Positions 4,767-52,134 of a DNA stretch of 64,000 nucleotides are shown here, piece after piece. Positions within the stretch are counted from its first letter, which is position 1. Each line of letters starts with the position of its first letter. The DNA is taken from assembly GCA_016713135.1 (NCBI GenBank), contig JADJPR010000023.1:668427-732426 (forward strand). Reading direction: 5' to 3'. Position numbers and translations under genes: made by a program. The notes beneath the pieces were generated by a model. It did not search any database, was not told the DNA's origin, and saw only the letters and a program-made list of their open reading frames with translations. Source of the stretch: Rhodanobacteraceae bacterium (lineage in GTDB: Bacteria > Pseudomonadota > Gammaproteobacteria > Xanthomonadales > SZUA-5).

Positions 4767-6368
<1,602 letters not shown>

Positions 6369-7211
6369 GCGCATTTGTGGGTTCGAACTTTGTTCGAACG
6401 CTTCTGCCCCGGATGGCACGACCAGCCCTGAGCGTCCGGACAAGGTCCGGACCCACGGGGGCTCATCGCCGCGTTGCCCCGCGGATGTGAGGGCATTTGT
6501 GGGTTCGAACCTTGTTCGAACGCTTCTGCCTCGGATGGCGACCAGCCCGAAGCGTCCGGACAAGGTCCGGACCCACGAGGGCTCATCGCCGCGTCGCCCT
6601 CGCGGATGTGGGGGCATTTGTGGGTTCGAACCTTGTTCGAACGCTTCTGCCTCGGATGGCACGACCAGCCCTGAGCGTCCGGACAAGGTCCGGACCCACG
6701 AGGGCTCATCGCCGCTTCGCCCTCGCGGATGTGGGGCATTTGTGGGTTCGAACCTTGTTCGAACGCTTCTGCCTCGGATGGCACGACCAGCCCGAAGCGT
6801 CCGGACTAGGTCCGGACCCACGAGGGCTCATCGCCGCGTCGCCCTCGCGGATGTAGGCGCATTTGTGGGTTCGAACCTTGTTCGAACGCTTCTGCCTCGG
6901 ATGGCACGACCAGCCCTGAGCGTGCGGACAAGGTCCGGACCCTCGAGGGCTCATCGCCGCGTCGGCCTCGCGGATGTGGGGGCATTTGTGGGTTCGAACC
7001 TTGTTCGAACGCTTCTGCCTCGGATGGCACGACCAGCCCTGAGCGTGCGGACAAGGTCCGGACCCTCGAGGGCTCATCGCCGCGTCGCCCTCGCGGATGT
7101 GGGGCATTTGTGGGTTCGAACCTTGTTCGAACGCTTCGGCCTCGGATGGCACGACCAGCCCGAAGCGTCCGGACAAGGTCCGGACCCACGAGGGCTCATC
7201 GCCGCTTCGCG
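6369..7211. repeat. tandem array of 7 x ~122 bp filling the prfC/permease convergent intergenic region
   Basis: The unit marker GCATTTGTGGGTTCGAAC recurs at 6371, 6493, 6614, 6736, 6859, 6982 and 7104 (periods 121-123). Each unit holds three potential hairpins: GTTCGAAC-ctt-GTTCGAAC, GTCCGGAC-aag-GTCCGGAC and CGAGGGC-N13-GCCCTCG. Confidence 0.9.
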
Positions 7212-14793: not shown

Positions 14794-14957
14794 GACGCAA
14801 AGGACGCAAAGGGGAGAAGAAAGGACGCAAAGGAAAGCAGGCGGGAAGCCGATCGGACCAGCCGCTCGCTGCATCTGCTTCCCTTGCTGCAACTGCTCCC
14901 CCGCTCCAATGGCTTCCTTCGTGTCCTTGCTTGCTGTTTTTTGCGTCCTTTGCGTCC
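14794..14957. repeat. oligomer-armed hairpin element (unit GACGCAAAG / CTTTGCGTC) inside the kdp operon
   Basis: Left arm: GACGCAAAG at 14794, 14803 and 14824. Right arm: CTTCGTGTC...TTTTGCGTC CTTTGCGTC, ending ~14957. It occupies most of the 243-nt kdpB-kdpC gap. Confidence 0.8.
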
Positions 14958-20697: not shown

Positions 20698-21396
20698 TCA
20701 AGACTTCTTGGCGGCTGGCTTCTTTGCCGGCGCCTTGGTGGCAGGCGCCTTCTTGGCCGGAGCCGCCTTCGCTGCAGGCTTCTTCGCCGGCGCCGCCTTG
20801 GCGGCCGGCTTCGCTGCAGCCTTGGCAGGCGCCTTGGCTGCGGGCTTCTTCGCCGGAGCCGCCTGCTTCGCCGGGGCCTTGGCTGCTGGCGCTGCCTTCT
20901 TCGCCGGGGCCTTGGCCGCTGGCGCTGCCTTCTTCGCCGGGGCCTTGGCCGCTGGCGCTGCCTTCTTCGCCGGAGCCTTGGCTGCCGGCGCCGCCTTCTT
21001 GGCCGGGGCCTTGGCCGGCTGTCCGGTCACCTTGGCAGCTGCGGCCTTGGCCTTGTCCACCGCCTTACCCACTTCCGCCTTGGCCTTTGCAACGGCCTTC
21101 TTCACCGCCTTGACCTTCGGCGCGGCGGCCTTCTCGGCTTTGGCCACGGTCTTCTTGGCAGCCTTCTTGACGTCAGCCACCTCCTTCTTGACCGCCTTGG
21201 TCACTTCGGCAGCCTTGGCTTCGACCGCCTTCTTGGCCGCACCGACTTTCTTCGCCGCAGCCTTCTTCACCGCCGCCACCTTGGATTCGGCCGCTGCAAC
21301 CGCTTCCTTGCCTTCCGCGATCAGCTTCTCGCCAATTGCCTCGGCCTTGTCTTTCAGCTCTTCGATCTTGCCCGCAATACCCTGATCACCGCTCAT
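20698..21396 (-). CDS. histone H1-like / AlgP-like Ala-Lys-Pro repeat nucleoid protein (232 aa)
   Basis: MSGDQGIAGKIEELKDKAEAIG... is followed by (APAKKAAPAAK)n. GAGGGAG lies 8 nt upstream of the ATG at the complement of 21394-21396. The rest of ORF 20698-21756 overlaps nrdJa and was discarded. Confidence 0.75.
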   Translation of the reverse strand: MSGDQGIAGKIEELKDKAEAIGEKLIAEGKEAVAAAESKVAAVKKAAAKKVGAAKKAVEAKAAEVTKAVKKEVADVKKAAKKTVAKAEKAAAPKVKAVKKAVAKAKAEVGKAVDKAKAAAAKVTGQPAKAPAKKAAPAAKAPAKKAAPAAKAPAKKAAPAAKAPAKKAAPAAKAPAKQAAPAKKPAAKAPAKAAAKPAAKAAPAKKPAAKAAPAKKAPATKAPAKKPAAKKS

Positions 21397-21443: not shown

Positions 21444-23591
21444 CTAGAACTTGCCGTAATAGCCTTCCTTCAGCGCATCGAACAGATTGGCGGCGGTATG
21501 GATCTCGCCGTCGTACTCGATTTCCTCGTTGCCCTTGACTTCGACCACGCTGCCGTCTTCGAGTTCGAAGCGGTAGAGGGTGTTCTCCAGATCCTGCTCC
21601 TTGACCAGCACGCCCTGGAAGGCGGCCGGATTGAAGCGGAACGTGGTGCAGCCCTTCAGCCCCTGCTTGTGCGCGTAGAGGTAGATGTCCTTGAAGTCCG
21701 CGTAAGGGTAGTCGGTGGGCACATTGGCGGTCTTGCTGATCGAGGAATCCACCCACTTCTGTGCCGCAGCCTGGATGTCGACGTGTTCTTTCGGGCTGAT
21801 GTCGTCGGCGGCGACGAAATAATCCGGCAGCTTTTCGTCGGCCTTCTCGCTGTAGGGCATCGCCTTCGGGTTGACCAGGTGACGGTAGGCCAGCAGCTCA
21901 AAGCTGTAGACCTCGACCTTTTCCTTGGACTTCTTGCCCTCGCGGATCACGTTGCGCGAGTAATGGTGCGCGAACGAGGGCTCGATGCCGTTGCTGGCGT
22001 TGTTGCCGATCGACAGCGAGATGGTGCCGGTCGGCGCGATCGAGCTGTGGTGGGTGAAGCGCGCGCCGGCCTCGGTCAGATCCTGGCACAGCTCCGGCGC
22101 AACGGTGGCCAGGCGCTGCATGTAGCGCGAGTACTTGCCGTGCAGCACGCGGCCGGGGATGCGGTCGCCCATCTGGTAGCCGTCGGCCACCATTTCCGGG
22201 CGCTTGCGCAGCATGTCGCCGGTCACCTCGAAGTCCTCGAGCATGATCGGGGCCGGGCCCTTTTCCTGCGACAGCGCGAGCGCTTCCTCCCAGCCGGCGA
22301 CCGCCATGTCGCGCGCCACCTGCTCGGTGAACTCGCAGGATTCGGGCGTGCCGTAACGCATCTTCAGCATCGTCAGGGTGGAGCCGAGGCCGAGGAAACC
22401 CATGCCGTGGCGGCGCTTGCGCATGATCTCGTTGCGCTGGCCTTCCAACGGCAGGCCGTTGACCTCGACCACGTTGTCCAGCATGCGCGTGAACACGCGC
22501 ACCACTTCCTTGTATTCCTCCCAGTCGAAGCGCGCGCGGCTGGTGAAGGGCTCGCGCACGAACTTGGTCAGGTTGACCGAGCCGAGCAGGCAGGAACCAT
22601 AAGGCGGCAACGGCTGCTCGCCGCAGGGATTGGTCGCGCGGATCTGCTCGCACCACCAGTTGTTGTTCATCTCGTTGACGCGGTCGATCAGGATGAACCC
22701 CGGCTCGGCGAAGTCGTAGGTCGAGGTCATGATCATTTCCCACAGACCTTTCGCCCGGATCTTGCCGTAGATCTTGCAGGCGACCAGGCCATCGTCACGG
22801 CTGACGTAGTTGTGCTTCGTCGGCCACTCGCGCCAGACCACCTGCCTGGGATCGGTGACGTCGATCTCGTGCTGTTCCTTGACGTGCACCGGGAACACCA
22901 GCGGCCAGTCGCCATCGGTCTCCACCGCGTGGATGAACTCGTCGGTGATCAGCAGCGACAGGTTGAACTGGCGCAGGCGACCGTCCTCGCGCTTGGCCTT
23001 GATGAACTCCTTGACGTCCGGATGCGAGACATCGAAGGTGCCCATCTGCGCGCCGCGGCGGCCGCCGGCGCTGGACACGGTGAAACACATCTTGTCGTAG
23101 ATATCCATGAAGGACAGCGGTCCGGAGGTATAGGCGCCGGCACCCGACACGTAGGCGCCGCGCGGGCGCAGCGTCGAGAATTCGTAGCCGATGCCGCAGC
23201 CGGCCTTGAGCGTCAGCCCGGCCTCGTGCACCTTGGCCAGGATGTCGTCCATCGAGTCGCCGATGGTACCGGACACGGTGCAGTTGATCGTGCTGGTGGC
23301 CGGCTTGTGCTCGAGCGCGCCGGCATTGGAGGTGATGCGGCCGGCGGGAATGGCGCCACGACGCAGCGCCCAGAGGAAGCGCTCGTACCAGTAGGCACGC
23401 TTTTCCGGCGTGGCTTCGGCATCCGCGAGCGCCCGCGCGACACGCTTGAAGCTGTCGTCCATGGTGCGGTCGATCGGATCGCCCAACTTGCTCTTCAGGC
23501 GGTACTTCTTGTCCCAGATGTCCTGGGATGCAGGCTGCAACGGGATGTCCACAATGTCATTGCGTACCGCTTCGAGACGAACGGTGCTCAT
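21444..23591 (-). CDS. nrdJa: adenosylcobalamin-dependent (class II) ribonucleotide reductase large fragment (715 aa)
   Basis: MSTVRLEAVRNDIVD... with the catalytic region ATNPCGEQPLPPYGSCLLGS, and full-length class II RNR similarity. Confidence 0.95.
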   Translation of the reverse strand: MSTVRLEAVRNDIVDIPLQPASQDIWDKKYRLKSKLGDPIDRTMDDSFKRVARALADAEATPEKRAYWYERFLWALRRGAIPAGRITSNAGALEHKPATSTINCTVSGTIGDSMDDILAKVHEAGLTLKAGCGIGYEFSTLRPRGAYVSGAGAYTSGPLSFMDIYDKMCFTVSSAGGRRGAQMGTFDVSHPDVKEFIKAKREDGRLRQFNLSLLITDEFIHAVETDGDWPLVFPVHVKEQHEIDVTDPRQVVWREWPTKHNYVSRDDGLVACKIYGKIRAKGLWEMIMTSTYDFAEPGFILIDRVNEMNNNWWCEQIRATNPCGEQPLPPYGSCLLGSVNLTKFVREPFTSRARFDWEEYKEVVRVFTRMLDNVVEVNGLPLEGQRNEIMRKRRHGMGFLGLGSTLTMLKMRYGTPESCEFTEQVARDMAVAGWEEALALSQEKGPAPIMLEDFEVTGDMLRKRPEMVADGYQMGDRIPGRVLHGKYSRYMQRLATVAPELCQDLTEAGARFTHHSSIAPTGTISLSIGNNASNGIEPSFAHHYSRNVIREGKKSKEKVEVYSFELLAYRHLVNPKAMPYSEKADEKLPDYFVAADDISPKEHVDIQAAAQKWVDSSISKTANVPTDYPYADFKDIYLYAHKQGLKGCTTFRFNPAAFQGVLVKEQDLENTLYRFELEDGSVVEVKGNEEIEYDGEIHTAANLFDALKEGYYGKF

Positions 23592-23786
23592 CAAAACTGC
23601 CTCCCCAGGCATCAGGCGCGTTTTTCTTGTGTGTTGCGGTGTTGCAACTAGTTCTTGATGCCAGTTGGCAGCTCAACCACAACATCTAGTGGTGCGACGG
23701 GCGCGAAGTTTGGAATCGCCGGGGCGGGACGTCAAGCGACTTCGTGCCGGAAGTGTGACCCATTGCTGCGCGAGCCGATGAGCGGA

Positions 23787-23954
23787 TGGTTGTGGGTTGT
23801 GGGTTGTGGGTTGTGGGTTGTGGGTTGTGGGTTCTGGGTTCTGGGTTGTGGGTTCTGGGTTGTGGGTTCTGGGTTGTGGGCAGAAAAGCCGGCCGCCGAC
23901 TGCATTCGCTTCGGCCTTTGCCGCCCACAACCCAGAACTCACAACCCCAGAACC
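23787..23954. repeat. oligomer-armed hairpin element (GGGTTGT/GGGTTCT heptamers vs ACAACCC/AGAACCC)
   Basis: The left arm has ~13 heptamers (23787-23881). The loop is AGAAAAGCCGGCCGCCGACTGCATTCGCTTCGGCCTTTGCC. The right arm (23923-23954) has only ~4 heptamers. The element ends 5 nt from the stop of the GGDEF-EAL gene. Confidence 0.85.
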
Positions 23955-23959
23955 GTGAC

Positions 23960-26917
23960 TCAAACGATCTCCCCCACCGGCAGCGGCCGGCTGAACAAGA
24001 AGCCCTGACCGAGCTTGCAGCCGAGCTCGCGCAGGGCCTGGCACTGAATGTGGGTCTCGATGCCCTCGCCGATGACCTCGATGCCGAGCGAGTCGGACAG
24101 GGCATGGATCGCGCGCACGACGGCGGCGCTGCCGCCTTCCTGGCCGGGTTTCAGGTCGGAGACGAAGGAGCGGTCGATCTTCAGCGAGTGGATCGGAAAG
24201 CGGTGCAGGTAGGACAGCGAGGAGTACCCGGTGCCGAAATCGTCCAGTTGCACCCGTACGCCATCTTCGCGCAGGCGCTCCAGCAGGCGCCGCACGTGGT
24301 CCGGGTTCTCCAGCAGCGCGCCCTCGGTGACTTCCAGGCGCACGCGCTGCGGCGCCAGGCCGTGGGCATCGATCAGGCGCATCACCGAGCGGTCGAAGTC
24401 GCCCGCGCGCAACTGGCGCGCGGAAACATTGATGCTGACGTAGGCGTCCGGTTGCGGCAGGCGCTGGGCGTCGCGACAGGCGAGCGCGAACATCTGCCAG
24501 TCGATCTGCTCGATCGAGCCGTTGTCTTCGGCGACGTTGAGGAAATCCCCCGGCAGCAGCAGGCCGCGCTCGCCATGGCGCCAGCGCAGCAGCGCCTCGT
24601 AGCCGACCACCGCTGCGTCTTCCAGGCGCACGATCGCCTGGAAGTGCGGCTCGAACTCGCCGCGCGCCAGAGCGCGTCGCAGGTCGCCCTCGAGATCCAG
24701 CACGCGCAAGGCTTCGGCGCGCAGCTGCTCGTCGAACAGCTCGAAGCGCTGGCGCCCCTGAGCCTTGGCGCGGTACATCGCCACGTCGGCATCGCGCAGC
24801 AGTTCCTCGGCGCGGGTGTAGCGCGGATGCGAGAAGGCAATGCCGATGCTGGCCGAGGTGAACAGCTCCTTGCCGCCGATGCGCATCGGCTCGGCGAGGG
24901 CCGAAATGACGCGGTCGGCGATGAAGGTGGCGCGGTCCGGGTGGTGCAGGTCGTCGAGCAGGATGGCGAATTCGTCGCCGCCCAGACGCGCGACGGTATC
25001 CGGCTCGCGTACCGCCGCGGCGATCCGGGTGGCCGCTTGTTTCAGCAACTCATCGCCCACCAGGTGGCCGACACTGTCGTTGACCACCTTGAAGCGGTCG
25101 AGATCGAGGAACAGCACGGCGAAGCCGCGCGATTCGCCGCGGCGGAAACGGGTCAGCGCGCGCGCCAGGCGGTCGAGCAGGAAAGCGCGGTTGGGCAGCC
25201 CGGTCAGGGTGTCGTGCAGGGCCTGGTGCTTGAGGGTGTCCTCGACCCGCTCGCGCTCGACGATCTCATTGGTCAGTTCGCGGTTGGCGACGGCCAGTTC
25301 GTGCGTGCGGTCGGCCACGCGCCGTTCCAGATCGGCATAGGCCGCGCGCAGTCCATCCTGCGCGCGCTTGCGCTCCAGCCCGTTGGCGATGTGGTAGCCG
25401 ACAAAAGTCAGCAGTTCCTGGTCGCGCTCGGTGAACGGGATGTCGGCCGAATAACTCTGCACCGCAACCACGCCGACGGTGCGTTCGTCGCAGATCAGCG
25501 GGACGCCGAGCCAGTAGACCGAGCGCGAACCGAAGCTCGCCACCTCTCCTGCGTGCGCCAGCGACTCGATGGCGTCGCGGTCGGCCAACAGCGCCTGCCC
25601 GGTGCGCAACACATATTCGGTCAGGCCCTTGGCCAGCTTGCGCCGCTGGCGCACCGGGTCGCGCTCGTCCACCGAATACGGAAACTCCAGCTCGCTGCCG
25701 TCATCGCTGACCAGCGCGATGTAGAAATTGCGCGCGTACAGCAGCTGGTCGACGATCCCGTGCACCGCCGCGTAGAACTCCTCCAGCGACTCGGCGGTGC
25801 TGGACTTCTCCGCGATCCGGTAGAGCGCCGCCTGCAGGCGTTCGCTGCGCTGGCGCTCCAGGACCTCCTGGCGCAGTTCGCGATTGGCCGCGGCCAGTTC
25901 GCGCGTGCGCTCGTCCACCCTACGCTCCATTTCCTCCTGCGCCTGCTTGCGATCCAGCGCGGTGAGGATGTGCTGCGCGACATAGGTCAGCAGGGTGCGG
26001 TCCTCGGCGCTGAATCGATGCTCCTCGCGGTAGCTCTGGACCACGATCGCGCCGCGAACCTCGCCCGCTCCGACCAGCGGCACGCCCAGCCAATCGACGC
26101 TGTCCGGGCCCAGGCTGTCGTCGCGCGCCACGCCCAGGCGCTCACGCAGCGTATCGGAAGGACCCATCTGCGCCTGGCCGCTCGCGAGCATCGCGAGCGT
26201 CAGGCTGTTCGGGATGCTGCTGACCGGGATCGCGGCGCCCGGGACCGGGCGGTCGGTGTCCTCGGTATCGGCGAAGTAGAGGAAGCGCAGGGAGTCGGGA
26301 TCGTGCTCGCGCAGCACGATGAAGAAGTTCTCGGCGTACATCAGCTCGCCGACGACGCCGTGCACGCTCTGCATCATCTCCGGCATGTCCAGTTCGGAGC
26401 TGGCCATCTCGGCAATCGCATACAGCGCGCGCTGCAGGCGCTCGGCGCGCTCCAGTCGCAGCACGGCCTGGGTCAGCGTGTCGAGTTCGACCAACCGCCC
26501 CGCCACGGCGGCGATATCGTCGACGAAGCGCTGCCACTCGCTGTCTACCGGCTGCGCGTGCGCAGCTGGCCAGGCCAGCGCGGCACGGCCCATGACGCCG
26601 GAGACCAGTTCGCGACAGGCGAAGGGTCCGTCGCCGCGCGGTCCGGCGTTTCCCGCCCATTGCTCCAGCCAGGCGCGTTCTTCATTGCTGGCCGCGGCGG
26701 CAGGGGCCACCAGTTGCCTCGCCGGCTCGCCCGACAGTGCGCTGCGCGACCACCAGACCAGCATCAGTCGCGGTATGCCGAAGCGGCGGTGGGCCTCGCG
26801 CGCGGCGACATGCGCGAGGGTTTCCAGGTCAGAGGTCCGCAGCAATTCGCGCACGAATCCGCCATGTCCGCCGTTGCCGCCGGTGGTGGCCATCGCTTCG
26901 ACTGCTTGCGGATTCAT
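23960..26917 (-). CDS. GAF-domain diguanylate cyclase/phosphodiesterase (GGDEF-EAL, 985 aa)
   Basis: Repeated GAF-like segments with coiled linkers, then RLGGDEFAILL (GGDEF) and GYEALLRW...QLDDFGTGYSSL (EAL). The start at the complement of 26915-26917 has AGGGAGG upstream. Confidence 0.9.
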   Translation of the reverse strand: MNPQAVEAMATTGGNGGHGGFVRELLRTSDLETLAHVAAREAHRRFGIPRLMLVWWSRSALSGEPARQLVAPAAAASNEERAWLEQWAGNAGPRGDGPFACRELVSGVMGRAALAWPAAHAQPVDSEWQRFVDDIAAVAGRLVELDTLTQAVLRLERAERLQRALYAIAEMASSELDMPEMMQSVHGVVGELMYAENFFIVLREHDPDSLRFLYFADTEDTDRPVPGAAIPVSSIPNSLTLAMLASGQAQMGPSDTLRERLGVARDDSLGPDSVDWLGVPLVGAGEVRGAIVVQSYREEHRFSAEDRTLLTYVAQHILTALDRKQAQEEMERRVDERTRELAAANRELRQEVLERQRSERLQAALYRIAEKSSTAESLEEFYAAVHGIVDQLLYARNFYIALVSDDGSELEFPYSVDERDPVRQRRKLAKGLTEYVLRTGQALLADRDAIESLAHAGEVASFGSRSVYWLGVPLICDERTVGVVAVQSYSADIPFTERDQELLTFVGYHIANGLERKRAQDGLRAAYADLERRVADRTHELAVANRELTNEIVERERVEDTLKHQALHDTLTGLPNRAFLLDRLARALTRFRRGESRGFAVLFLDLDRFKVVNDSVGHLVGDELLKQAATRIAAAVREPDTVARLGGDEFAILLDDLHHPDRATFIADRVISALAEPMRIGGKELFTSASIGIAFSHPRYTRAEELLRDADVAMYRAKAQGRQRFELFDEQLRAEALRVLDLEGDLRRALARGEFEPHFQAIVRLEDAAVVGYEALLRWRHGERGLLLPGDFLNVAEDNGSIEQIDWQMFALACRDAQRLPQPDAYVSINVSARQLRAGDFDRSVMRLIDAHGLAPQRVRLEVTEGALLENPDHVRRLLERLREDGVRVQLDDFGTGYSSLSYLHRFPIHSLKIDRSFVSDLKPGQEGGSAAVVRAIHALSDSLGIEVIGEGIETHIQCQALRELGCKLGQGFLFSRPLPVGEIV

Positions 26918-27108
26918 CGGCCTCCCTGCTCCGGCCCCGAGGATGCCCCAGCGGAGTCTCCGCCCGCTGCAAGTGTATGCCGATGCGCACCGTTTTTGCC
27001 GACCTCGCGCCGGCGACATGTCGATATGACGACGGCGACTGGTGTCGCCCCCGTCCGCTGGGGCACCATGCGGGTCCAATCTTCGATCGCACCGGTCCGG
27101 AGCGCGCC

Positions 27109-28085: not shown

Positions 28086-28317
28086 CCGGTTAAACGCGGA
28101 GACGCAGAGAGCACGGAGGAAAGCCGCAGAGAAGGAGCGAGAGTGTTTCCGGGGAGACTCGAGCCTGCAGCACCTGCCGCGAACCCCGCCCACGTCTCTT
28201 GCTCGTCTCTGCGTCCTCCGCGTCTCTGCGTTGAATGGCCCCCGGCACTCCCGAGCCAAAACCTGACGCTCCTCCGCGGCTTTTCTCCGCGTCCTCCGCG
28301 TCTCCGCGTTTGACCGG
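28086..28317. mobile_element. MITE-like element with CCGGT(T/C)AAACGCGGAGACGC termini, copy 1
   Basis: Left end CCGGTTAAACGCGGAGACGCAGAGAG, right end ...CTCCGCGTCTCCGCGTTTGACCGG. The interior is rich in GCGGAG/GCAGAGA oligomers and their complements. It has the same termini as 51812-52134. Confidence 0.8.
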
Positions 28318-29760: not shown

Positions 29761-29858
29761 GAGGGCACGAGGGCATGAGGGCACGAGGGCACGTGAAAGC
29801 CGGCGCTCGCACTGGGCGGCTCTTGCGTGCCCTCGTGCCCTCGTGCCCTCGTGCCCTC
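29761..29858. repeat. oligomer-armed hairpin element (GAGGGCAC x4 / GTGCCCTC x4) between phoP and phoQ
   Basis: 32-nt arms at 29761-29792 and 29827-29858 are complementary with one mismatch, around a 34-nt loop. The loop is the reverse complement of the loops of the GAGGGCAC hairpins at 33249-33920. Confidence 0.9.
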
Positions 29859-39567: not shown

Positions 39568-41293
39568 GACCATCGCCCTCGATACTCTTCTGCCGGCGCT
39601 GGCCAATCGCCCGCTGCTGGCCTGGCGCGGCGCGCACAGTGTCGGCGGACCTGCTTTCCTGGCGCGCGTCGGCGCCTGGCATCGCGCGCTCGACCTGCCC
39701 GCCGGCAGCACCCTGGCGCTGGTGCATGGCGATGCGATCGAGTTCGCCGCAGCCCTGTACGCGGCCTGGCTGCGCCGGCTGGTGGTACTGGTGCCGGGCG
39801 ACACCCTGCCGGCCACCGTCGCGACCGTCGCCGCCGACGTGGCCGCCCTGGCCGGCGAGTTCGGCGCGGCCACGACCCACCCGCAGCCGCCCACGGACGC
39901 CGAACCGCTGCCGGCCGCGCTGCCGCTCGGCCTGGCGAGCCCCCTGGTGCTGCAGACCTCGGGCTCGACCGGCACACCGCTGCGGGTGCCCAAGACCCTG
40001 CGCCAGCTGGACGCCGAAGTACGCACGCTGGAGGCTTGCTTCGGCCATGCGCTCGGCAGCGCGCGGATCGCCGCCACGGTGTCGCACCAGCACATCTACG
40101 GCCTGCTGTTCCGCCTGCTCTGGCCGCTCGCCAGCGGGCGCGCTTTCGAGGCGCACGCGCATCCCTACCTGGAGTCCGTGGCGCCGCTGCTGGGCGAGGG
40201 TGCGACCGCGCTGGTGTCCAGCCCGGCGCACCTGAAGCGGCTGCCGGCGGGCATCGACTGGCATCCGGGCGGGCGCACGCTGTCGGCGCTGTTCTCCTCC
40301 GGCGGTCCGCTGGATGCACCCGCGGCGCAGGCGCTGCAGGCGGCGACCGGCGTGTTGCCGATCGAGGTCTGGGGCAGCACCGAGACCGGCGGTATCGGCT
40401 GGCGCCAGCAAGCGAGCAGCGATACGCCGTTCGCGCCGCTGCCCGGCGTGTCGCTGTCCGCGGATGAGCACGGCGCGCTGGTCCTGCGCTCGCCGCACCT
40501 CGCCAGCGAGGACTGGCAAAGGCTGGCCGATCGCGGCGACCTGGATCCGGATGGGCGGGTGCGCCTGCGCGGGCGCGACGACCGCATCGTCAAGATCGGC
40601 GAGAAGCGTGTTTCGCTCAGCGCCATCGAGCGCGCGGCGGCGGGCGGTCCGTGGCTGAACGAGGTGCGCCTGGTGGCGCTGCCCGGGGACCGGCTGCAGC
40701 TTGGTCTGGTGGGCGTGCCCAACGCTGCTGCGCGCGAGGTCCTGCTCAAGGCCGGCCGGCGCGCGCTGGCGGATGCGCTGCGCGCCGGACTGGCCGCGCA
40801 CTGCGAGCGCGTGGCGCTGCCGCGGCGCTTCCGCTTTGTCCATGCACTGCCGCAGAACAGCCAGGGCAAGACCACCGATGCCGCGCTGGCCGCGCTGTTC
40901 GCCGACACCGAAACGCGCCCGCTGCTGCCTTTCCACGACTGGCCTATGCGCGAAGCCTGTCGGGCGACCGCGGAGCTGTGGATAGGCCCGGACCTGTACC
41001 ATTTCCAGGGCCATTTTCCGGGACAGCCGATCCTCCCCGGCGTGGCCCAGATCGACTGGGCAATCAGCCTGGCGCGCCAGATGTTCGCGCTGCCGCCGCA
41101 CCTGGTGCGCATGGAGGCGCTCAAGTTCCAGGCACTGATCCAGCCCGGCACCCGCCTCACCCTGGACCTCGAATGGAAGCCAGACCGGCAGCAGTTGGAG
41201 TTCCGCGCGCACTCGGCGGCAGGGGCGCATGCGAGTGCCAGGCTCGTGTTCGATAGTGCGTGTTCTGGCGCAGAGGTGAGACGTGAAACGTGA
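39560..41293 (+). CDS. adenylate-forming (AMP-dependent) ligase fused to a C-terminal hot-dog dehydratase-like domain (577 aa)
   Basis: LQTSGSTGTPLRVPKT is an adenylation core motif. The C-terminus has YHFQGHFPGQPILPGVAQIDWAI (FabA/FabZ-like). The stop TGA at 41291-41293 lies inside the GTGAAAC repeat element. Confidence 0.85.
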   Translation: MPETIALDTLLPALANRPLLAWRGAHSVGGPAFLARVGAWHRALDLPAGSTLALVHGDAIEFAAALYAAWLRRLVVLVPGDTLPATVATVAADVAALAGEFGAATTHPQPPTDAEPLPAALPLGLASPLVLQTSGSTGTPLRVPKTLRQLDAEVRTLEACFGHALGSARIAATVSHQHIYGLLFRLLWPLASGRAFEAHAHPYLESVAPLLGEGATALVSSPAHLKRLPAGIDWHPGGRTLSALFSSGGPLDAPAAQALQAATGVLPIEVWGSTETGGIGWRQQASSDTPFAPLPGVSLSADEHGALVLRSPHLASEDWQRLADRGDLDPDGRVRLRGRDDRIVKIGEKRVSLSAIERAAAGGPWLNEVRLVALPGDRLQLGLVGVPNAAAREVLLKAGRRALADALRAGLAAHCERVALPRRFRFVHALPQNSQGKTTDAALAALFADTETRPLLPFHDWPMREACRATAELWIGPDLYHFQGHFPGQPILPGVAQIDWAISLARQMFALPPHLVRMEALKFQALIQPGTRLTLDLEWKPDRQQLEFRAHSAAGAHASARLVFDSACSGAEVRRET

Positions 41294-41455
41294 AACGGAG
41301 GAAGTGAAACGTGAAACGTAAAACGTCAATGGGCGGCGGCTCTGATTGACGTTTTACGTTTGACGTTTGACCTTTTCGCACCGCAACGTCAAAGGACCGC
41401 GCCTCCGATTGACGTTTCACGTTTCACGTTTGACCTTTGATTCCTCACGTTTGAA
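41276..41455. repeat. oligomer-armed hairpin element (GTGAAAC / GTTTCAC heptamers) with one left and two right arms
   Basis: Left arm: GTGAGAC GTGAAAC GTGAAAC ... GTGAAAC GTGAAAC GTAAAAC GTCAAT (41276-41330). Right arm 1: ATTGAC GTTTTAC GTTTGAC GTTTGAC (41345-41371). Right arm 2: ATTGAC GTTTCAC GTTTCAC GTTTGAC ... (41408-41455). Confidence 0.85.
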
Positions 41456-41485
41456 ATTCCCAGAGATTCCGAGCAGCCCCACCCC

Positions 41486-43223: not shown

Positions 43224-44768
43224 ATGCCCGACCGCAACCCGACGCCTGTCCGCTTCGACGGCCAGCCATTGACCATCGAAGACATCGTCGCGCTGGCCCG
43301 CCGGCAACGCCCGGCGGTGCTCGACGACAGCGAGCCCCTGCGCCAGCGGATCCAGGCCGGCGCTGATTTCCTCGACCGCGTGCTGGCCGAGGACGGCGTG
43401 ATCTACGGCGTGACCACCGGCTACGGCGATTCCTGCACCGTCAGCATCCCGACCGGCCTGGCGCTGGAGCTGCCGCAGCGGCTGTACACCTACCACGGTT
43501 GCGGCGCGGGGGCGCTGCTGACGCGCGAACAGACCCGCGCGGTGCTGGCCACGCGCCTGAATTCGCTGGTCCAGGGCTATTCCGGCGTGAGCTGGCGCCT
43601 GCTGCAGCAGCTCGCCGGCCTGCTCCGGCACGATGTGCTGCCGCGTATTCCGTCCGAAGGATCGGTCGGCGCCAGCGGCGACCTGACCCCACTCAGTTAT
43701 GTCGCCGCCGTGCTGTGCGGCGAGCGTGAAGTGTGGAAGGGCGAAGGCGCCGAGCCGGCGGCCGATGCGCTCGCCGCTGCGGGCCTTGCGCCGTTGAAGC
43801 TGCGGCCGAAGGAAGGCCTGGCGGTGATGAACGGCACCGCGGTGATGACCGCGCTGGCCTGCCTGGCGCACGCGCGCGCCGACTACCTGTCGCGCCTGGC
43901 CACCCGCATCACCGCGCTGGCGGTGGTGGTGATCGACGGCAATCCGCACCACTACGACGAGCGCCTGTTCGCGGTGAAGCCGCATCCGGGACAGATGCGC
44001 GTGGCCGCGCGGCTGCGCGCGGACCTGGCCGCCGACCGCCCGCCGCGCAATGAGCAGCGCCTGCAGGATCGCTATTCGCTGCGCTGCGCGCCGCACGTGC
44101 TGGGCGCGCTGGAAGATGCGCTGCCCTGGCTGCGAACGCTGATCGAAACCGAGCTCAACAGCGCCAACGACAACCCGATCATCGATCCGGATGACCTGCG
44201 CGTGCTCCACGGCGGCCATTTCTACGGCGGTCACATCGCGATGGCGATGGACACCCTGAAGTGCCAGGTGGCCAACCTGGCCGATCTGCTCGACCGCCAG
44301 ATGGCGCTGCTGGTGGATGCGCGCTACAACCACGGGTTACCGGCCAACTTGTCCGGCGCCAGCGGCAGCCGACGGCCGATCAACCACGGCCTGAAGGCGC
44401 TGCAGATCAGCGCCTCGGCCTGGACCGCCGAAGCGCTCAAACAGACCCTGCCGGCCTCGGTATTCAGCCGCTCCACCGAGTGCCACAACCAGGACAAGGT
44501 GAGCATGGGCACGATCGCCGCGCGCGACTGCCTGCGCGTGCTGGAACTGGCCGAGCAGGTCGCCGCGGCGCTGCTGGTCACGGTGCGCCAGGGCATCGAA
44601 CTGCGCCTGAAACTGACGCCCGGCAGTACGCTGCCGACAGCGCTGGCGACGATGCAGCAGGATCTCGCGGCCCGGATCGGGTTCATTGACGAGGACCGCG
44701 CGCTCGACCGCACCCTGGTCGAACTGATGGCCGCGATCGATGCCCGCGCGTGGCCACTGTATGACTGA
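43224..44768 (+). CDS. MIO-dependent aromatic amino acid ammonia-lyase (HAL/TAL/PAL family, 514 aa)
   Basis: YGVTTGYGDS..., GSVGASGDLTPLS (Ala-Ser-Gly MIO triad), NDNPII. The ATG at 43224 lies inside the 824-aa ORF 42294-44768. Confidence 0.9.
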   Translation: MPDRNPTPVRFDGQPLTIEDIVALARRQRPAVLDDSEPLRQRIQAGADFLDRVLAEDGVIYGVTTGYGDSCTVSIPTGLALELPQRLYTYHGCGAGALLTREQTRAVLATRLNSLVQGYSGVSWRLLQQLAGLLRHDVLPRIPSEGSVGASGDLTPLSYVAAVLCGEREVWKGEGAEPAADALAAAGLAPLKLRPKEGLAVMNGTAVMTALACLAHARADYLSRLATRITALAVVVIDGNPHHYDERLFAVKPHPGQMRVAARLRADLAADRPPRNEQRLQDRYSLRCAPHVLGALEDALPWLRTLIETELNSANDNPIIDPDDLRVLHGGHFYGGHIAMAMDTLKCQVANLADLLDRQMALLVDARYNHGLPANLSGASGSRRPINHGLKALQISASAWTAEALKQTLPASVFSRSTECHNQDKVSMGTIAARDCLRVLELAEQVAAALLVTVRQGIELRLKLTPGSTLPTALATMQQDLAARIGFIDEDRALDRTLVELMAAIDARAWPLYD

Positions 44769-45183
44769 GACGCCCGCGGCCTGGCAGGCCGACACCCTGA
44801 TCGACCCGGCCTTTTTCGATATCGACCCGATGGAGATCGTCTGGCACGGCAACTATGTGAAATACCTCGAGGTGGCGCGCTGCACCCTGCTCGACCAGAT
44901 CGACTACAACTACTACCAGATGAAGGACTCCGGCTACGCCTGGCCGATCGTGGACCTGCACCTGCGCTACGTGCAGCCGGTGCGCTTCCGCCAGAAGATC
45001 CGCATCAACGCGAAGATCATCGAGTGGGAGCACCGCCTGAAGATCCACTACCGCATCTGCGACGACGCCAGCGGCCGCAAGCTCACCACCGGCCACACGG
45101 TGCAGGTGGCGGTGGACATCCGCAACGGCGAACTGCAGTTCGAGACCCCGCCGGTGTTGCGGCGGAAGCTGGGGCTGGCGTGA
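44761..45183 (+). CDS. 4HBT/YbgC-type hot-dog thioesterase (140 aa)
   Basis: DIDPMEIVWHGNYVKYLEVARCTLLDQI is typical of acyl-CoA/ACP thioesterases. The start overlaps the lyase stop. Confidence 0.8.
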   Translation: MTETPAAWQADTLIDPAFFDIDPMEIVWHGNYVKYLEVARCTLLDQIDYNYYQMKDSGYAWPIVDLHLRYVQPVRFRQKIRINAKIIEWEHRLKIHYRICDDASGRKLTTGHTVQVAVDIRNGELQFETPPVLRRKLGLA

Positions 45184-45188
45184 GCCGC

Positions 45189-46043
45189 ATGGCGCCGGGC
45201 ATCGCGCAGCGTGATCGACGCGCTCCGGGTTGCGCTGATGCACGCGCTGCAGGGTTGTGGGTTGTGGGTTGTGGGTTGTGGGCAGCGCGACCGGCGCGAG
45301 ATCCCGGGCGCAGGGCAACTTGGCTGGCCGCCATCTTCGCACTCGCCAGTGCCCTTGCTCCTGCCTTTGCTGCCCAGAACCCAGAACCCACAACCCAGAA
45401 CCCGCTTATCGCTGCCCACAACCCACAATCCACAACCCAGAACCCGCATATCGCTGCCCAGAACCCACAACCCACAACCCAGAACCCGCTGACCGCTGCC
45501 ACGGACCTCCTCACCACCATCGCCGCCCGCATCCAGCCCGCCGCGGTGCTGCGCGGCGAGTTCGTGCAGGAGCGCACGCTGGTGGGCTTCGCCAAACCGC
45601 TGCGCTCCACCGGGCGCTTCGTGGCGGCGCGCGGGCGCGGGGTGCTGTGGATCACGCAATCGCCGTTTCCGGGAGAACTGGTGATCACCGAGGGCGCGAT
45701 CCGCGAGCGGGTGGACGGCAGCGAGAGCGTGGTCGTCGATGCCAGCCGGGAACCTGCGCTGCAGCAAATCAATCGCGTGCTGCTGGCGCTGCTGCAGGGC
45801 GATCTCGCCACCCTGCGCGAGCAGTTCAGCGTGGCTGGCCAGGACGATTCCCAAGGTTGGGCGCTGACGCTGACGCCGCAGCCGCCGTTGAGCGAGGCCA
45901 TCGGCCTGGTCGAACTGGCCGGAAACAGCCAGGTCGAAGTGGTCAGCATCCGTGAGCACAACGGCGATCTCAGCCGGGTCGAGTTCCATGCGCTGTCCGG
46001 CGGCGACGCGCTGACCGCCGACGAAGCGGCGCGCCTTGACTGA
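45189..46043 (+). CDS. LolA-like outer-membrane lipoprotein-carrier family protein; its N-terminus is read through a hairpin repeat element (284 aa if the ATG at 45189 is used)
   Basis: The conserved body is DLLTTIAARIQPAAVLRGEFVQERTLVGFAKPLRSTGRFVAARGRGVLWITQSPF... The only upstream in-frame ATG is 45189. The signal-like stretch RRATWLAAIFALASALAPAFAA lies in the loop of the repeat element. Confidence 0.65.
   Translation: MAPGIAQRDRRAPGCADARAAGLWVVGCGLWAARPARDPGRRATWLAAIFALASALAPAFAAQNPEPTTQNPLIAAHNPQSTTQNPHIAAQNPQPTTQNPLTAATDLLTTIAARIQPAAVLRGEFVQERTLVGFAKPLRSTGRFVAARGRGVLWITQSPFPGELVITEGAIRERVDGSESVVVDASREPALQQINRVLLALLQGDLATLREQFSVAGQDDSQGWALTLTPQPPLSEAIGLVELAGNSQVEVVSIREHNGDLSRVEFHALSGGDALTADEAARLD
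45252..45494. repeat. oligomer-armed hairpin element (GGGTTGT heptamers; right arm = 3 x 42 nt) inside the LolA-like reading frame
   Basis: Left arm: GGGTTGT x4 (45252-45283). Right arm 45369-45494 = GCTGCCCAGAACCCAGAACCCACAACCCAGAACCCGCTTATC and two variants. Related to 23787-23954. Confidence 0.85.
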
Positions 46044-48357
46044 ATCCGCGCCGCCGCGCCGCCACTGGCTCGCCTGGGCCTGGGCGCTGCTGGTGCTGGG
46101 TTGTGCGGCGCACCTGGCGCTGGTCGGATCGCGCGGCGAGTGGCCGGTCGACACCGACGTGATGGCGCTGCTACCGCAGGACACGCGCCACCCCGCGGCC
46201 GAACAGGCGCTGGCGCGCTTGAGCGATGCCGCCTCGCGACGGGTGGTCGTGGTCCTGGCCGCCGACGACTTTGCCCGCGTGCGCGCGGCGGCCAGCGAGA
46301 TCCAGGTGTTACTCGCGGGCAGCGACAGCCCACTGCAGGCGGCGGCGGGCAACACCGGCGCCAGCCGCGAGTTGATCGAGTTCTACGCGCCCTGGCGCGA
46401 CCGTCTGCTCGCCCGCAGCGACCGCGAGCGCCTGGCGCAGCAGAGTCCCGAGCAGATCGCGCGGGCCGCGGTGCAGCGGCTGTATCGCCCGGGGCCGGGC
46501 ATGCGGGCGCTCGGGCCGCTGGAGGATCCGCTCGACAGCTACGCCGCCTGGCTCGCCGAGCGCGCCGGCGCCACCCGCTTGCGCCCGCGCGAAGGCTGGC
46601 TGTGGCAGCAGGCCGATGGGCACGAGTTGATCGTGCTGCCCTTCGAACTGCGCGCCACCGCGCTCAGCGTCGCGGCGCTGCAGCAGTTGCAGCCGCGCCT
46701 CACCGCCGCGCGCGCCGCGGCGGCGGCCCAGGGCGTGGAGATGCTCAGCGCCGGCGTGCCGGTGCATGCCGCCGCCGCCGCGCTGCAGGCCGAGCGCGAG
46801 ATGAGCCTGATCGGTGCCGGCGCGGCGCTCGGGATCGTGGTGCTGATGCTGCTGTGTTTCCGCCGCCTGCGGCCGATGCTGCTGGTGCTGGGATCGGTGG
46901 GTGTCGGCCTGCTGGTCGCGCTGTCGCTCTGCCTGTTGCTGTTCGAGCGCGTGCACCTGCTGACGCTGGTGTTCGGCGCCAGCCTGGTCGGCGTCGCCGA
47001 GGACTACGCCATCCACTGGCTCAGCGCGCGGGCGCTGGCGCCGCCCGGCGAGGCCGAGCGCACGACGCGCGCGCTGGTGCCCGGGCTGTGGCTGGCCTTC
47101 GCCACCTCCGCGCTCGGCTACCTGGCGCTGGCGCTGGCGCCTTTCCCCGGCTTGCAGCAGATGGCGCTGTTCTCGATCGCAGGACTCGCCGGCGCGCTGG
47201 TCTCGGTGCTGCTGTGGATGCCGCAGCTGGTCGGCCGCGAACCGACGGCCACCGCGATCAGCGTGTGGCTGGCCGGCTCCTTCCGCCGCTGGCCCCGGCT
47301 GCGCGCCACGCCGACATCGCTCGGCATCCTCGGGCTGCTGCTCCTGCTGGCGTCAGCCGGCGCCGCGCGCCTGCGCAGCAGCGACGATTTGCGCGCGCTG
47401 CAATCCTCGCCGCCGGCGCTGGTTGCGGAGCAGGCGCGCATCGGCGCGTGGCTGGCCGAGCCCAGCCCGGTGCAGTTCTACCTGGTACAGGGGCGCGACC
47501 ACGCCGAACTGTTGGCGCGCGAGGAAGCGCTGGTCGTGAAGCTGGACGCGCTGCGGCAGGAGGGCTTCATCGACGGTCATCGTGCGCTGTCCGACTGGGT
47601 CCCTTCGCCCACCCGGCAGGCGCAGGACCGCACCTTGTGGCAACCCGCGGCTGGCGCTGCGCGCGCCGCCATCGCAGCCGAGCTGGGCGGCAGCGGCGCA
47701 GCCGCGAGGCCGCTGGCCGACGCTCCGCTGACTCTCGACGAATGGCTCGCCAGCCCGGCGGCGCTGGCGCTCCGCCCGCTGTACCTCGGCCAGCTCGACG
47801 GCGCGTTCCAGAGCGTGGTCCAGGTCCATGGGCTCGACTCGGCGGCACAGCTGCCGCGCCTCGCTGCCCAGGCCCAGGCGCTGCCGGGCGTAACCTGGGT
47901 CGATCGCATCGGCGACTATTCGCGGCTGCTGCGCGAGTACCGGATCGCCATGATCCAGGTGCTCGGCGCCAGCATCGTGCTGGTCGCGGTCCTGCTGGCC
48001 TGGCGCTACCGACGCCAGGCCTGGCGGGTTTTGCTGCCGACGCTGGTCGCGATGCTCGCGGTGCTGGCCTGGCTCGGCTGGCGCGGCGAGCCGCTGCAAC
48101 TGTTCCACGTGCTCGGCCTGATCGTGCTGCTCGGCATGGCCGACGACTACGGCATCTTCCTGCTCGAAGCGGATGCCGCCGGACCCGCGTGGCTCGGCGT
48201 GGTGCTCGGCGCGGTCAACACCCTGCTGGCCTTCGGCCTGCTCGCCTTCTCGGGCACGCCGGCGCTGGCGGCTTTCGGGTTGACGCTGCTGATCGGAATT
48301 GCCGTGGCCTGGTTGCTGGCGCCAACCGTGGCGCCCACTCCGCAGCGCCCGGGTTGA
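46036..48357 (+). CDS. MMPL/RND-superfamily exporter (773 aa)
   Basis: Two blocks of TM helices separated by large periplasmic domains. TTG start per the ORF track, overlapping the LolA-like stop. Its position matches the MMPL gene of aryl-polyene clusters. Confidence 0.85.
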   Translation: MTESAPPRRHWLAWAWALLVLGCAAHLALVGSRGEWPVDTDVMALLPQDTRHPAAEQALARLSDAASRRVVVVLAADDFARVRAAASEIQVLLAGSDSPLQAAAGNTGASRELIEFYAPWRDRLLARSDRERLAQQSPEQIARAAVQRLYRPGPGMRALGPLEDPLDSYAAWLAERAGATRLRPREGWLWQQADGHELIVLPFELRATALSVAALQQLQPRLTAARAAAAAQGVEMLSAGVPVHAAAAALQAEREMSLIGAGAALGIVVLMLLCFRRLRPMLLVLGSVGVGLLVALSLCLLLFERVHLLTLVFGASLVGVAEDYAIHWLSARALAPPGEAERTTRALVPGLWLAFATSALGYLALALAPFPGLQQMALFSIAGLAGALVSVLLWMPQLVGREPTATAISVWLAGSFRRWPRLRATPTSLGILGLLLLLASAGAARLRSSDDLRALQSSPPALVAEQARIGAWLAEPSPVQFYLVQGRDHAELLAREEALVVKLDALRQEGFIDGHRALSDWVPSPTRQAQDRTLWQPAAGAARAAIAAELGGSGAAARPLADAPLTLDEWLASPAALALRPLYLGQLDGAFQSVVQVHGLDSAAQLPRLAAQAQALPGVTWVDRIGDYSRLLREYRIAMIQVLGASIVLVAVLLAWRYRRQAWRVLLPTLVAMLAVLAWLGWRGEPLQLFHVLGLIVLLGMADDYGIFLLEADAAGPAWLGVVLGAVNTLLAFGLLAFSGTPALAAFGLTLLIGIAVAWLLAPTVAPTPQRPG

Positions 48358-51819: not shown

Positions 51820-52134
51820 ACGCGGAGACGCAGAGGGCGCGGAGAAAAGCGCCGAGAAGGCAGGAGGGTTCGGCGGCCGGAAACGGGTTGTCTCGCGGGC
51901 CGGACAAAGAGCAGGACGCAGAGAACGCAGAGGAGAAGCAGAGAGATCACAGAGGGAGCGGGCCATTCCTGTGCCCGCTGGAACGTCGTTCTTTGCCTTC
52001 TCCGCGATCTCTCTGCCTTTCCTCTGCGCTCTCTGCGTCCTGCTTCGTCCTCGGTCCCCGGCGATGCCCGACCGTGCCCTGCCGCACCCTCTGCTGCTCT
52101 TCTCCGCGCTCTCTGCGTCTCCGCGTTTAACCGG
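51812..52134. mobile_element. MITE-like element with CCGGTTAAACGCGGAGACGCAGAG termini, copy 2
   Basis: Perfect 24-nt terminal inverted repeats. An internal second hairpin is built from GCAGAGA-type oligomers. It lies between the dehydratase and ketoreductase genes. Confidence 0.85.

Follow-up and report, generated by a model that had tools for sequence, protein, structure and literature searches.

In the opa genes of Neisseria, CTCTT repeats form a signal-peptide-coding tract in which gain or loss of a unit shifts the reading frame and gives phase variation. Hairpin-forming palindromic repeats are also tolerated in frame in conserved protein genes, as RPE in Rickettsia and YPAL/RU-2 in Yersinia (Delihas 2008, PMC2229807), and the signal peptide of the putative exported Yersinia protein YPO1552 is partly formed by such an element (PMC2229807). 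The (GGGAATC)n heptamer repeats of Xanthomonas show a strong preference for four units, and about 40% are arranged as convergent inverted pairs that could fold into stem-loops (Rehm et al. 2015, PMC4692102); most lie close behind the stop codon of the upstream gene, and 7–11% overlap open reading frames (ORFs) (PMC4692102). Here we describe a heptamer-repeat hairpin (positions 45252–45500) in the 5′ end of a LolA-like gene, within a 64,000-nucleotide stretch of contig JADJPR010000023.1 from a Rhodanobacteraceae bacterium, referred to below as the window.

The gene has a described counterpart in E. coli, in which the cluster order is ApeK (thioesterase), ApeL (LolA-like) and ApeM (RND) (Johnston et al. 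2021, PMC8253772, Table 1). ApeL has been proposed to bring the pigment lipid to the outer membrane together with ApeM, the RND protein, and ApeN, which is LolB-like (PMC8253772).

We propose, with a probability of roughly 0.6, that inverted heptamer arrays lie in frame in an ApeL-type gene and are read through from a coupled ancestral start as a signal peptide and linker. Translation would begin at GTG 45180 or ATG 45189, coupled to the preceding thioesterase gene; the left arm would be translated and become part of a long n-region, the loop would be read as a Sec-type signal peptide cleaved after AFA, and the right arm would form a 42-residue disordered Q/N/P/T extension of a periplasmic LolA-like protein. 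The arms would be tolerated because the n-region and the mature N-terminus accept almost any sequence. Only changes in multiples of three, such as the 42-nt step, would survive in both arm segments, and arm complementarity would be maintained by concerted change of the two arrays. The hairpin itself would be a tolerated passenger rather than a selected device.

An in-frame heptamer hairpin in an ApeL-type gene

The hairpin lies within the coding region, and the ORF, arms, loop and peptides described in an earlier reading made from the letters of the window (the sequence-only reading) were all recovered where it had placed them (GLWVVGCGLW, which the left arm encodes; RRATWLAAIFALASALAPAFA; and three 14-aa repeats). 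The right-arm copies are mutually 92–94% identical. Each consists of four CCCA[C/G]AA heptamers plus a 14-nt spacer, and not of six heptamers as had been supposed; the 42-nt step preserves the frame either way. The left arm is complementary to each of the three right-arm copies (91–94% over 35–36 nt). A heptamer-dimer pattern gave 27 matches against 0.29 expected, 26 of them confined to this hairpin (45253–45486) and to a second, sister element (23788–23946). The RNA of 45170–45510 has a folding energy of −160 kcal/mol (z = −4.5), its left arm being paired over about 30 bp, and hairpin stems of about 30 bp occur in three lineages (z −4.4 to −6.2). A scan for promoters and terminators found nothing, so the hairpin is not an intrinsic terminator, and Rfam returned only matches far under threshold, to plant miRNA precursor models (generic long hairpins). 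The left arm fits the quadruplex motif G3N4G3N4G3N4G3. Relatives with C- and T-type units (see below) have GG tracts only; because G3 tracts are kept only in G-type units, quadruplex potential is not a conserved feature, whereas arm pairing is.

The LolA-like ORF runs uninterrupted from ATG 45189 to TGA 46041–46043 (284 aa). Residues 111–278 match Pfam LolA_3 (E 9.9e-9, 35.2 bits, cut-off 23) and LolA (E 6.2e-8, 33 bits, cut-off 23.6), and an AlphaFold (AF2) model, built with 23 homologues as input, is confident from about residue 100 and finds solved LolA structures as its top Foldseek matches (E 1e-14). The gene lies between a thioesterase gene and an MMPL/RND gene whose start overlaps its end (Table 1), and this order is kept in three related loci (L020, L021, L031). 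The remaining cluster genes on related contigs encode a ketosynthase, two acyl carrier proteins, an AMP-ligase/ApeI-like protein, glycosyl- and acyltransferases, an aromatic ammonia-lyase and a halogenase. The cluster is of the aryl-polyene/xanthomonadin type and the LolA-like gene is of the ApeL type. Its ratio of nonsynonymous to synonymous substitution rates (dN/dS) against the closest relative, locus L032, is 0.23, similar to those of neighbouring genes (0.02–0.32). The gene is therefore under purifying selection and no inactive remnant, a possibility raised by the sequence-only reading.

Table 1. Coordinates of the hairpin, the genes around it and the sister element in the window (GC3, G+C content at third codon positions)
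Feature	Coordinates	Strand	Basis
Sister element; GGGTTGT unit, 13 units left, about 4 right, 42-nt loop	23788–23953	+	Intergenic
4HBT-type thioesterase gene (ApeK-like)	44740–45183	+	Pfam 4HBT_2 E 4e-14; stop TGA 45181–45183
Candidate ancestral start region; GTG 45180 on the thioesterase stop (GTGA) and ATG 45189, same frame	45180–45191	+	Outgroup junctions
Pre-arm N-terminal extension; 24 codons if translated	45180–45251	+	Log-odds −0.72, GC3 0.58
Left arm; (GGGTTGT)4 GGG	45252–45282	+	Tandem Repeats Finder × 4.4, 100% matches; inverted repeats
Loop; 89 nt	45283–45371	+	n-region and hydrophobic stretch
Right arm; 42-nt unit × 3.1	45369–45500	+	Tandem Repeats Finder, 90% matches
LolA-like body including stop codon	45504–46043	+	Starts DLLTTIAARIQ; Pfam, AF2, Foldseek
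MMPL/RND-type transporter gene (ApeM-like)	46036–48357	+	Pfam MMPL; synteny

In the LolA frame the loop encodes a positively charged n-region, AARPARDPGRR, followed by a 19-aa hydrophobic stretch, ATWLAAIFALASALAPAFA. Signal-peptide features were scored with a simple rule-based script, and hydrophobicity and the small-x-small rule place the predicted signal-peptidase site (AFA↓AQ) between 45371 and 45372. The AF2 model has a short predicted helix at residues 45–52. The right-arm peptide, three 14-aa repeats rich in Q, N, P and T, is predicted to be disordered (predicted local distance difference test (pLDDT) 42–61), and the LolA fold begins at the helix DLLTTIAARIQ (pLDDT 87–94), which a downstream start would cut. 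These predictions support the loop as the sole credible signal peptide of the LolA-like protein and the right arm as an N-terminal extension of the mature protein, both kept in frame by orthologues; loop and right arm are very probably translated. A Tat-like reading of the window motif RRATWL, suggested earlier, is not supported: the twin arginine is missing from most orthologues (MTGDRCSK, QVRGGWAIQ, SRSHRLLL, ARSFGLRL) and stands at the equivalent position only in P0001 (TRRDRCS). We also rejected a lipobox in the left-arm peptide (VVG↓C), as the Cys is not conserved and relatives have VVGS, VVGT and VVGF.

Two further kinds of evidence for translation were discarded. The frame is indeed open from ATG 45189, as the sequence-only reading had noted, but this says little: in this high-GC stretch all three frames are nearly open, the other two over 45211–45492 and 45257–45955. 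The phase of the arm peptides (VVG, PTT) is conserved, but a heptamer array gives one cyclic heptapeptide in every frame.

The orthologue survey, which covered 35 homologues and about 20 loci that were read, distinguished three states. In the first, there is no heptamer element and a short signal peptide directly precedes DLLxxVAARI; this state is found in P0010, P0012, P0019 and in the Roseateles/Pelomonas and Pseudoxanthomonas outgroups, none of which has a repeat-made N-terminal extension. In the second, found in L025/P0015, a complete short-loop hairpin lies upstream of a signal peptide of the ancestral type. The third is the state of the window, with a left arm, a signal-peptide loop, one to three right-arm copies and then DLL; it occurs in the window, L020, L021, L023, L027, L028, L029, L031, L032 and L035 and, by protein sequence, in P0005, P0006 and P0033. 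Aligning the orthologues, which had been put forward as a check on where their signal peptides start, places the predicted signal peptide of this third state in the loop, in frame with the LolA body. Every such loop has a net positive charge followed by an uncharged hydrophobic stretch of 14–24 residues, which ends in a small-x-small motif (AFA↓A, ALA↓A, VLA↓A or ASA↓A) directly before the right arm; the residues themselves vary by lineage. The window, L020 and L021 have loops that can be aligned from end to end (P < 0.003) and that are, on this alignment, orthologous sequences retaining predicted signal-peptide character. In one lineage, 3 nt and not 7 have been lost within the right arm.

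The closest relative, L032, is 96.8% identical to the window over 5.3 kb and has an identical right arm. Its left arm has three units in place of four, and nothing else differs over 402 nt; about four units make up the left arm in the remaining lineages that were read. The run without substitutions between the two (45125–45527) was rejected as a sign of special conservation, as an equally long identical run occurs in the MMPL gene. Against L032, a LipA-type acyltransferase gene in the window carries an extra base (42885) and is frameshifted; it is intact as a 308-aa ORF in L020, L021, L031 and L032. The extra base is either a sequencing error, which bears on the trust to be placed in indels of this assembly, or the mark of a pseudogene.

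At the thioesterase/LolA junction of other lineages, repeats of different types are likewise read in frame (L002, L023, L028, L030, L033). The 5′ repeats of LolA-like orthologues (L023 1400–1420, L028 100–190, L030 1680–1760, L033 1–230, L001 5920–5975, L002 5700–5760) include a TGTGGGAGCGGGC-type REP palindrome, which is read as an 'ARSHR' n-region, as well as an element of about 96 nt present in duplicate and further hairpins, and are mostly called in frame. The junction appears to be a hot spot for repeat elements. A metagenome scan for further orthologous loci yielded one contig, L034 (WBZT01066224.1), in which the LolA body is joined to unrelated upstream sequence right at the position of the repeat region (640–1070); it is probably an assembly chimera at the repeat.

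Unit type differs between lineages and does so on both sides of the loop: GGGTTGT/ACAACCC in the window, L021, L027 and L031 (G-type), CGGTTGT/ACAACCG in L020 and L029 (C-type), and TGGTTGY/RCAACCA in L023, L025 and L028 (T-type). In a hand-built alignment of the four loop-adjacent units per side from ten hairpins, 90.3% of cells pair, against 25–48% with the partner columns slid; the arms were picked by eye, so the test leans towards structure. Of 31 pairs, 10 change on both sides, a covariation reached in 0 of 500 shuffles, and at all four repeat positions the first base of the unit occurs in G-C, C-G and U-A pairs. Unit type and LolA-body phylogeny do not agree: all three types occur among the close relatives P0009 (G), P0014 (C) and P0015 (T), and the body of P0033, which has a T-type right arm, is 93% identical to that of the G-type window. 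The arms therefore change fast and together, and the loop is inherited.

Such co-variation invites the explanation that the hairpin is a selected mRNA structure, in which arm pairing blocks independent initiation, so that synthesis needs ribosomes arriving from the thioesterase gene, or sets mRNA stability. Complementarity has been kept across three unit types by compensatory changes, the loops are orthologous although the arms have changed, the stems are stable in the three lineages folded, and the hairpin persists in about ten lineages. However, inverted tandem arrays can change in concert through templated correction of quasi-palindromes, which offers a mechanistic source of the same pattern. 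Element-free orthologues manage without the hairpin, in L025 it precedes the signal peptide, and the arms of L035 are in decay; non-coding copies share the architecture, and neither a terminator nor a known RNA family was found in the scans above. We therefore hold selection on the RNA structure to be a tentative idea, and a doubtful one.

Start of translation and the three-unit allele

The outgroups indicate where translation of the gene may have begun ancestrally. In these genomes the LolA-like gene opens with an ATG that shares bases with the thioesterase TGA (ATGA), and its next codons encode the signal peptide. The corresponding GTGA is present in 10 of the 10 element-bearing loci in which the junction was read, and in L016 ATGAGCCGCATGGCG matches window GTGAGCCGCATGGCG (45180–45194), with 14 nt common to it and window 45181–45194. 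From the G of GTGA to the anchor VLRGEF the distances in nine lineages are 366, 294, 324, 324, 204, 246, 258, 339 and 321 nt, all multiples of three. From the GTG to the end of the left arm there are 34, 23, 45, 16 or 17 codons, which requires at least four indels, all of them multiples of three; this would have a probability of roughly 0.01 in non-coding sequence, a figure that is approximate in that the lineages are not phylogenetically independent. We consider it probable, on these comparisons, that the ancestral coupled start (GTG 45180 or ATG 45189) is still used in the four-unit allele.

The sequence-only reading had taken ATG 45189, as the only ATG upstream, for the sole start. A start at or next to this position does fit the ATGA/GTGA of the outgroups. 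However, GTG 45180 and, inside the left arm, TTG 45255, GTG 45264 and TTG 45276 are also in frame, and the three-unit arm of the closest relative, which had been missed, breaks the frame. Between 45276 and GTG 45546 the only in-frame start codon is the weak CTG (45324 and 45489).

Several observations weigh against the coupled start. In L032 the distance to the anchor is 359 nt (2 mod 3), so GTG 45180 and ATG 45189 are out of frame because the left arm has three units and not four; this locus also has a TGA in the LolA frame just upstream of the left arm. The three-unit allele (P0032) is called from an in-arm GTG on eight further contigs. Shine-Dalgarno energies (−5.0 and −5.3 kcal/mol for the upstream starts, −4.4 in the arm, +1.2 for GTG 45546) do not separate the candidate starts: weak sites are common in the cluster, and only 45546 is disfavoured. 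Codon usage in the LolA frame over 45180–45500 is non-native (log-odds −0.72, −0.74 and −0.17; GC3 0.56–0.67), with values below the 1st percentile of in-frame gene windows, where real genes of this region have a GC3 of 0.86–0.94. Finally, the public annotation begins far downstream, at GTG 45546. That entry (MBK8070354.1, from a Rhodanobacteraceae metagenome-assembled genome) is 165 aa long and identical to the last 165 residues of our model; its start is probably mis-called, leaving the protein without its signal peptide and first helix.

The three-unit allele either starts at an in-arm GTG or TTG or is switched off. A rival explanation is that translation starts inside the left arm in general, at GTG 45264 or TTG 45276, with 45180–45260 as an untranslated leader; arrays of at least three units offer a TTG or GTG in every frame. 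L032 and P0032 have no other in-frame starts upstream of the signal peptide in a gene under purifying selection, the window has no in-frame ATG, GTG or TTG from 45276 to the hydrophobic (h-) region, the pre-arm segment looks non-coding in its codon usage, and gene callers choose an in-arm start for P0001, P0032 and P0035. An in-arm start, on the other hand, makes a coincidence of the spacing from GTGA, a multiple of three in nine lineages and at eight lengths, and leaves the retention of the ancestral start-codon context unexplained. It would also lie hidden within the stem of about 30 bp, and in Shine-Dalgarno score it does not improve on the upstream start. We regard initiation within the arm as possible, though doubtful for the four-unit allele.

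The second option, that the three-unit allele is off, would make the left arm a contingency switch, in which gain or loss of 7 nt toggles coupled translation of the LolA-like gene on (four units) or off (three units) and renders the export of the pigment lipid phase-variable. The 7-nt unit is not a multiple of three, and the tract separates 45180/45189 from the signal peptide; at 97% identity, two strains differ by four against three units (366 against 359 nt) as the only change in 402 nt, and most lineages are in the on frame. Against this, no more than two alleles were seen, and each seems fixed in its own assemblies, which are consensus assemblies. A tract of four units is short for slippage to be frequent, the three-unit allele may still start in the arm, and a preference for four units is also found in the non-coding Xanthomonas copies (Rehm et al., PMC4692102). 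A switch is thus unlikely on present evidence; if the three-versus-four-unit difference does switch expression, repeat-mediated phase variation would extend to pigment export in environmental Xanthomonadales relatives.

A combination of the two control ideas, in which export of the pigment lipid is governed both by thioesterase-coupled translation through selected arm pairing and by slippage of a four-unit heptamer array, seems improbable. Were it true, it would mean phase-variable aryl-polyene export in an environmental member of the Rhodanobacteraceae.

The notion that the repeat region is untranslated and that the protein starts at GTG 45546 without a signal peptide is hardly credible: the NCBI annotation, a similar call for P0007 and the codon usage of 45180–45500 speak for it, but such a start deletes the conserved first helix DLLxxIAARIQ (pLDDT 87–94), lacks Shine-Dalgarno pairing, and would separate this protein from all element-free orthologues and outgroups, which have a signal peptide, from the signal-peptide-like loop held in frame in all lineages, and from the periplasmic site of action of LolA-type carriers (PMC8253772 on ApeL).

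The sister element, other repeats and origin of the hairpin

The sister element is intergenic. It ends 7 nt from the stop of a minus-strand GGDEF-EAL gene (23960–27079) and lies upstream of a minus-strand ribonucleotide reductase gene (21444–23612). Its loop shows weak similarity to the LolA loop of the window (P about 0.03), which we rejected as evidence of homology because it is marginal; the match to the loop of an octamer-armed element is as good or better (P about 0.006), and the sister loop matches the 5′ part of the LolA loop in L020 (0 of 400 shuffles). The sequence-only reading had offered two origins. That the element family arose from the 5′ end of the LolA-like gene does not fit the ancestral state of the element-free outgroups, the weak likeness of the two loops in the window or the several other families of tandem-armed hairpins that the window holds. 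The converse, that an element was exapted as export signal and linker, holds for the right arm, which is clearly repeat turned protein; for the signal peptide there is evidence on both sides. In favour of an ancestral signal peptide, the outgroups have one directly after the equivalent start, and ACTTGGCTG (TWL) is common to the window and the distant P0018. In favour of an element-derived one, the codon usage of the loop is non-native, the loop end GCCTTTGC is common to four non-coding elements, and L025 and the sister element have short loops that resemble the two ends of the long LolA loops. A protein search for other read-through copies with the 87-aa repeat-encoded peptide gave 50 candidates, none of which scored.

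The window holds other families of tandem-armed hairpins, with octamer, nonamer and further heptamer units. Octamer hairpins with four tandem units, GAGGGCAC / GTGCCCTC, and loops of 32–35 nt lie at 29761–29858, 33249–33345, 33690–33723 and 33822–33920, and three of their loops end in GCCTTTGC, like those of the heptamer elements. Nonamer-armed hairpins, CGCAAAGGA / TCCTTTGCG, occupy 14794–14957, 33087–33160 and 33465–33535 of the window and 1540–1650 of L030, an unrelated metagenome contig in which the nonamer unit is also found upstream of a LolA-like gene, so that the family is common to different genomes. Octamer and nonamer hairpins alternate with a conserved segment (…CCGGTCGCCCCTGGCGGTGCGCTTATTCGCGCATCGAAC…) in a composite array whose periods are 198 and 378 nt (33003–33968). 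Heptamer hairpins of the types GTGAAAC/GTTTCAC and GTCAAAC occur at 41236–41482 (elements 41276–41440), a region of 247 nt in the window against 125 nt in the 97%-identical L032 and hence a strain-variable repeat element. Further tandem-armed inverted repeats, with CGTCTCTG/TCTCCGCG-type and GAGAACGCAGAG-type units, are located at 28204–28309 and 51921–52126.

Other repeats in the window are of different kinds. A 123-nt tandem repeat (6362–7210; × 6.9, 94% matches) contains the short palindromes GGGTTCGAACCTTGTTCGAAC and GTCCGGACAAGGTCCGGAC, and GCC/CTT-rich tandem repeats of 30 and 33 nt (20707–21017; up to 4.8 copies, 92% matches) possibly encode an Ala/Lys/Pro-repeat protein on the minus strand. 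A tract of 54 nt at 37506–37559 is almost all G with few C (GGGGCGGGGG…).

Comparison with known systems

Gene callers differ on the LolA-like start in nearly every orthologue, and repeat hairpins at overlapping stop/start junctions are a systematic source of start mis-annotation. A repeat of non-coding type can persist in an essential part of a gene by occupying the n-region and the mature N-terminus, and the joint change of unit type in arms around loops that are orthologous illustrates cleanly, in nature, how inverted tandem arrays evolve in concert.

The protein resembles ApeL in its LolA Pfam domains and LolA fold and in its slot between the thioesterase and RND/MMPL genes, and differs from it by about 100 extra N-terminal codons of repeat sequence. 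With the Xanthomonas repeats, which come from the same bacterial order, the hairpin shares tandem G3 heptamers, about four units, a convergent inverted pair and, in the window, the G3N4 motif. However, the unit GGGTTGT (CGGTTGT or TGGTTGY in relatives) does not fit GGGANTN and no GGGAATC is present, and the present pair falls entirely inside a single gene, where it is in frame and has been conserved between lineages. The left arm begins 69 nt past the thioesterase stop in the window and 24–70 nt past it in relatives, and the Xanthomonas repeats are located within about 50 nt of the stop codon of the upstream gene. Because repeats of this class lie behind stop codons and the next gene starts on the stop, insertion falls in the signal-peptide region.

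Like RPE and YPAL, the hairpin is a repeat fused in frame into a conserved protein gene. Those elements are MITE-like (resembling miniature inverted-repeat transposable elements), with a fixed sequence and terminal inverted repeats, whereas the present hairpin has tandem arrays that can expand as its arms, a loop that varies from copy to copy, and the predicted signal peptide encoded within that loop. Only two copies were found in the 64 kb (loops of 89 and 42 nt) and none further in about 45 kb of related loci, and no target-site duplication was noted at the element ends. The likeness to Neisseria opa lies in a unit that is not a multiple of three in the leader-peptide region and in a one-unit difference between close strains; the differences are that the tract has four units, that two alleles were observed, that it is a hairpin arm and that an in-arm GTG or TTG could rescue the shifted allele. 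What is new is the combination: a tandem-armed hairpin that straddles a predicted signal peptide and is kept in frame across about ten lineages, with co-varying arms and a frame-shifting one-unit polymorphism. Set beside these systems, the arrangement is an oddity, conserved but belonging to a known class of repeats, and not a new kind of system.

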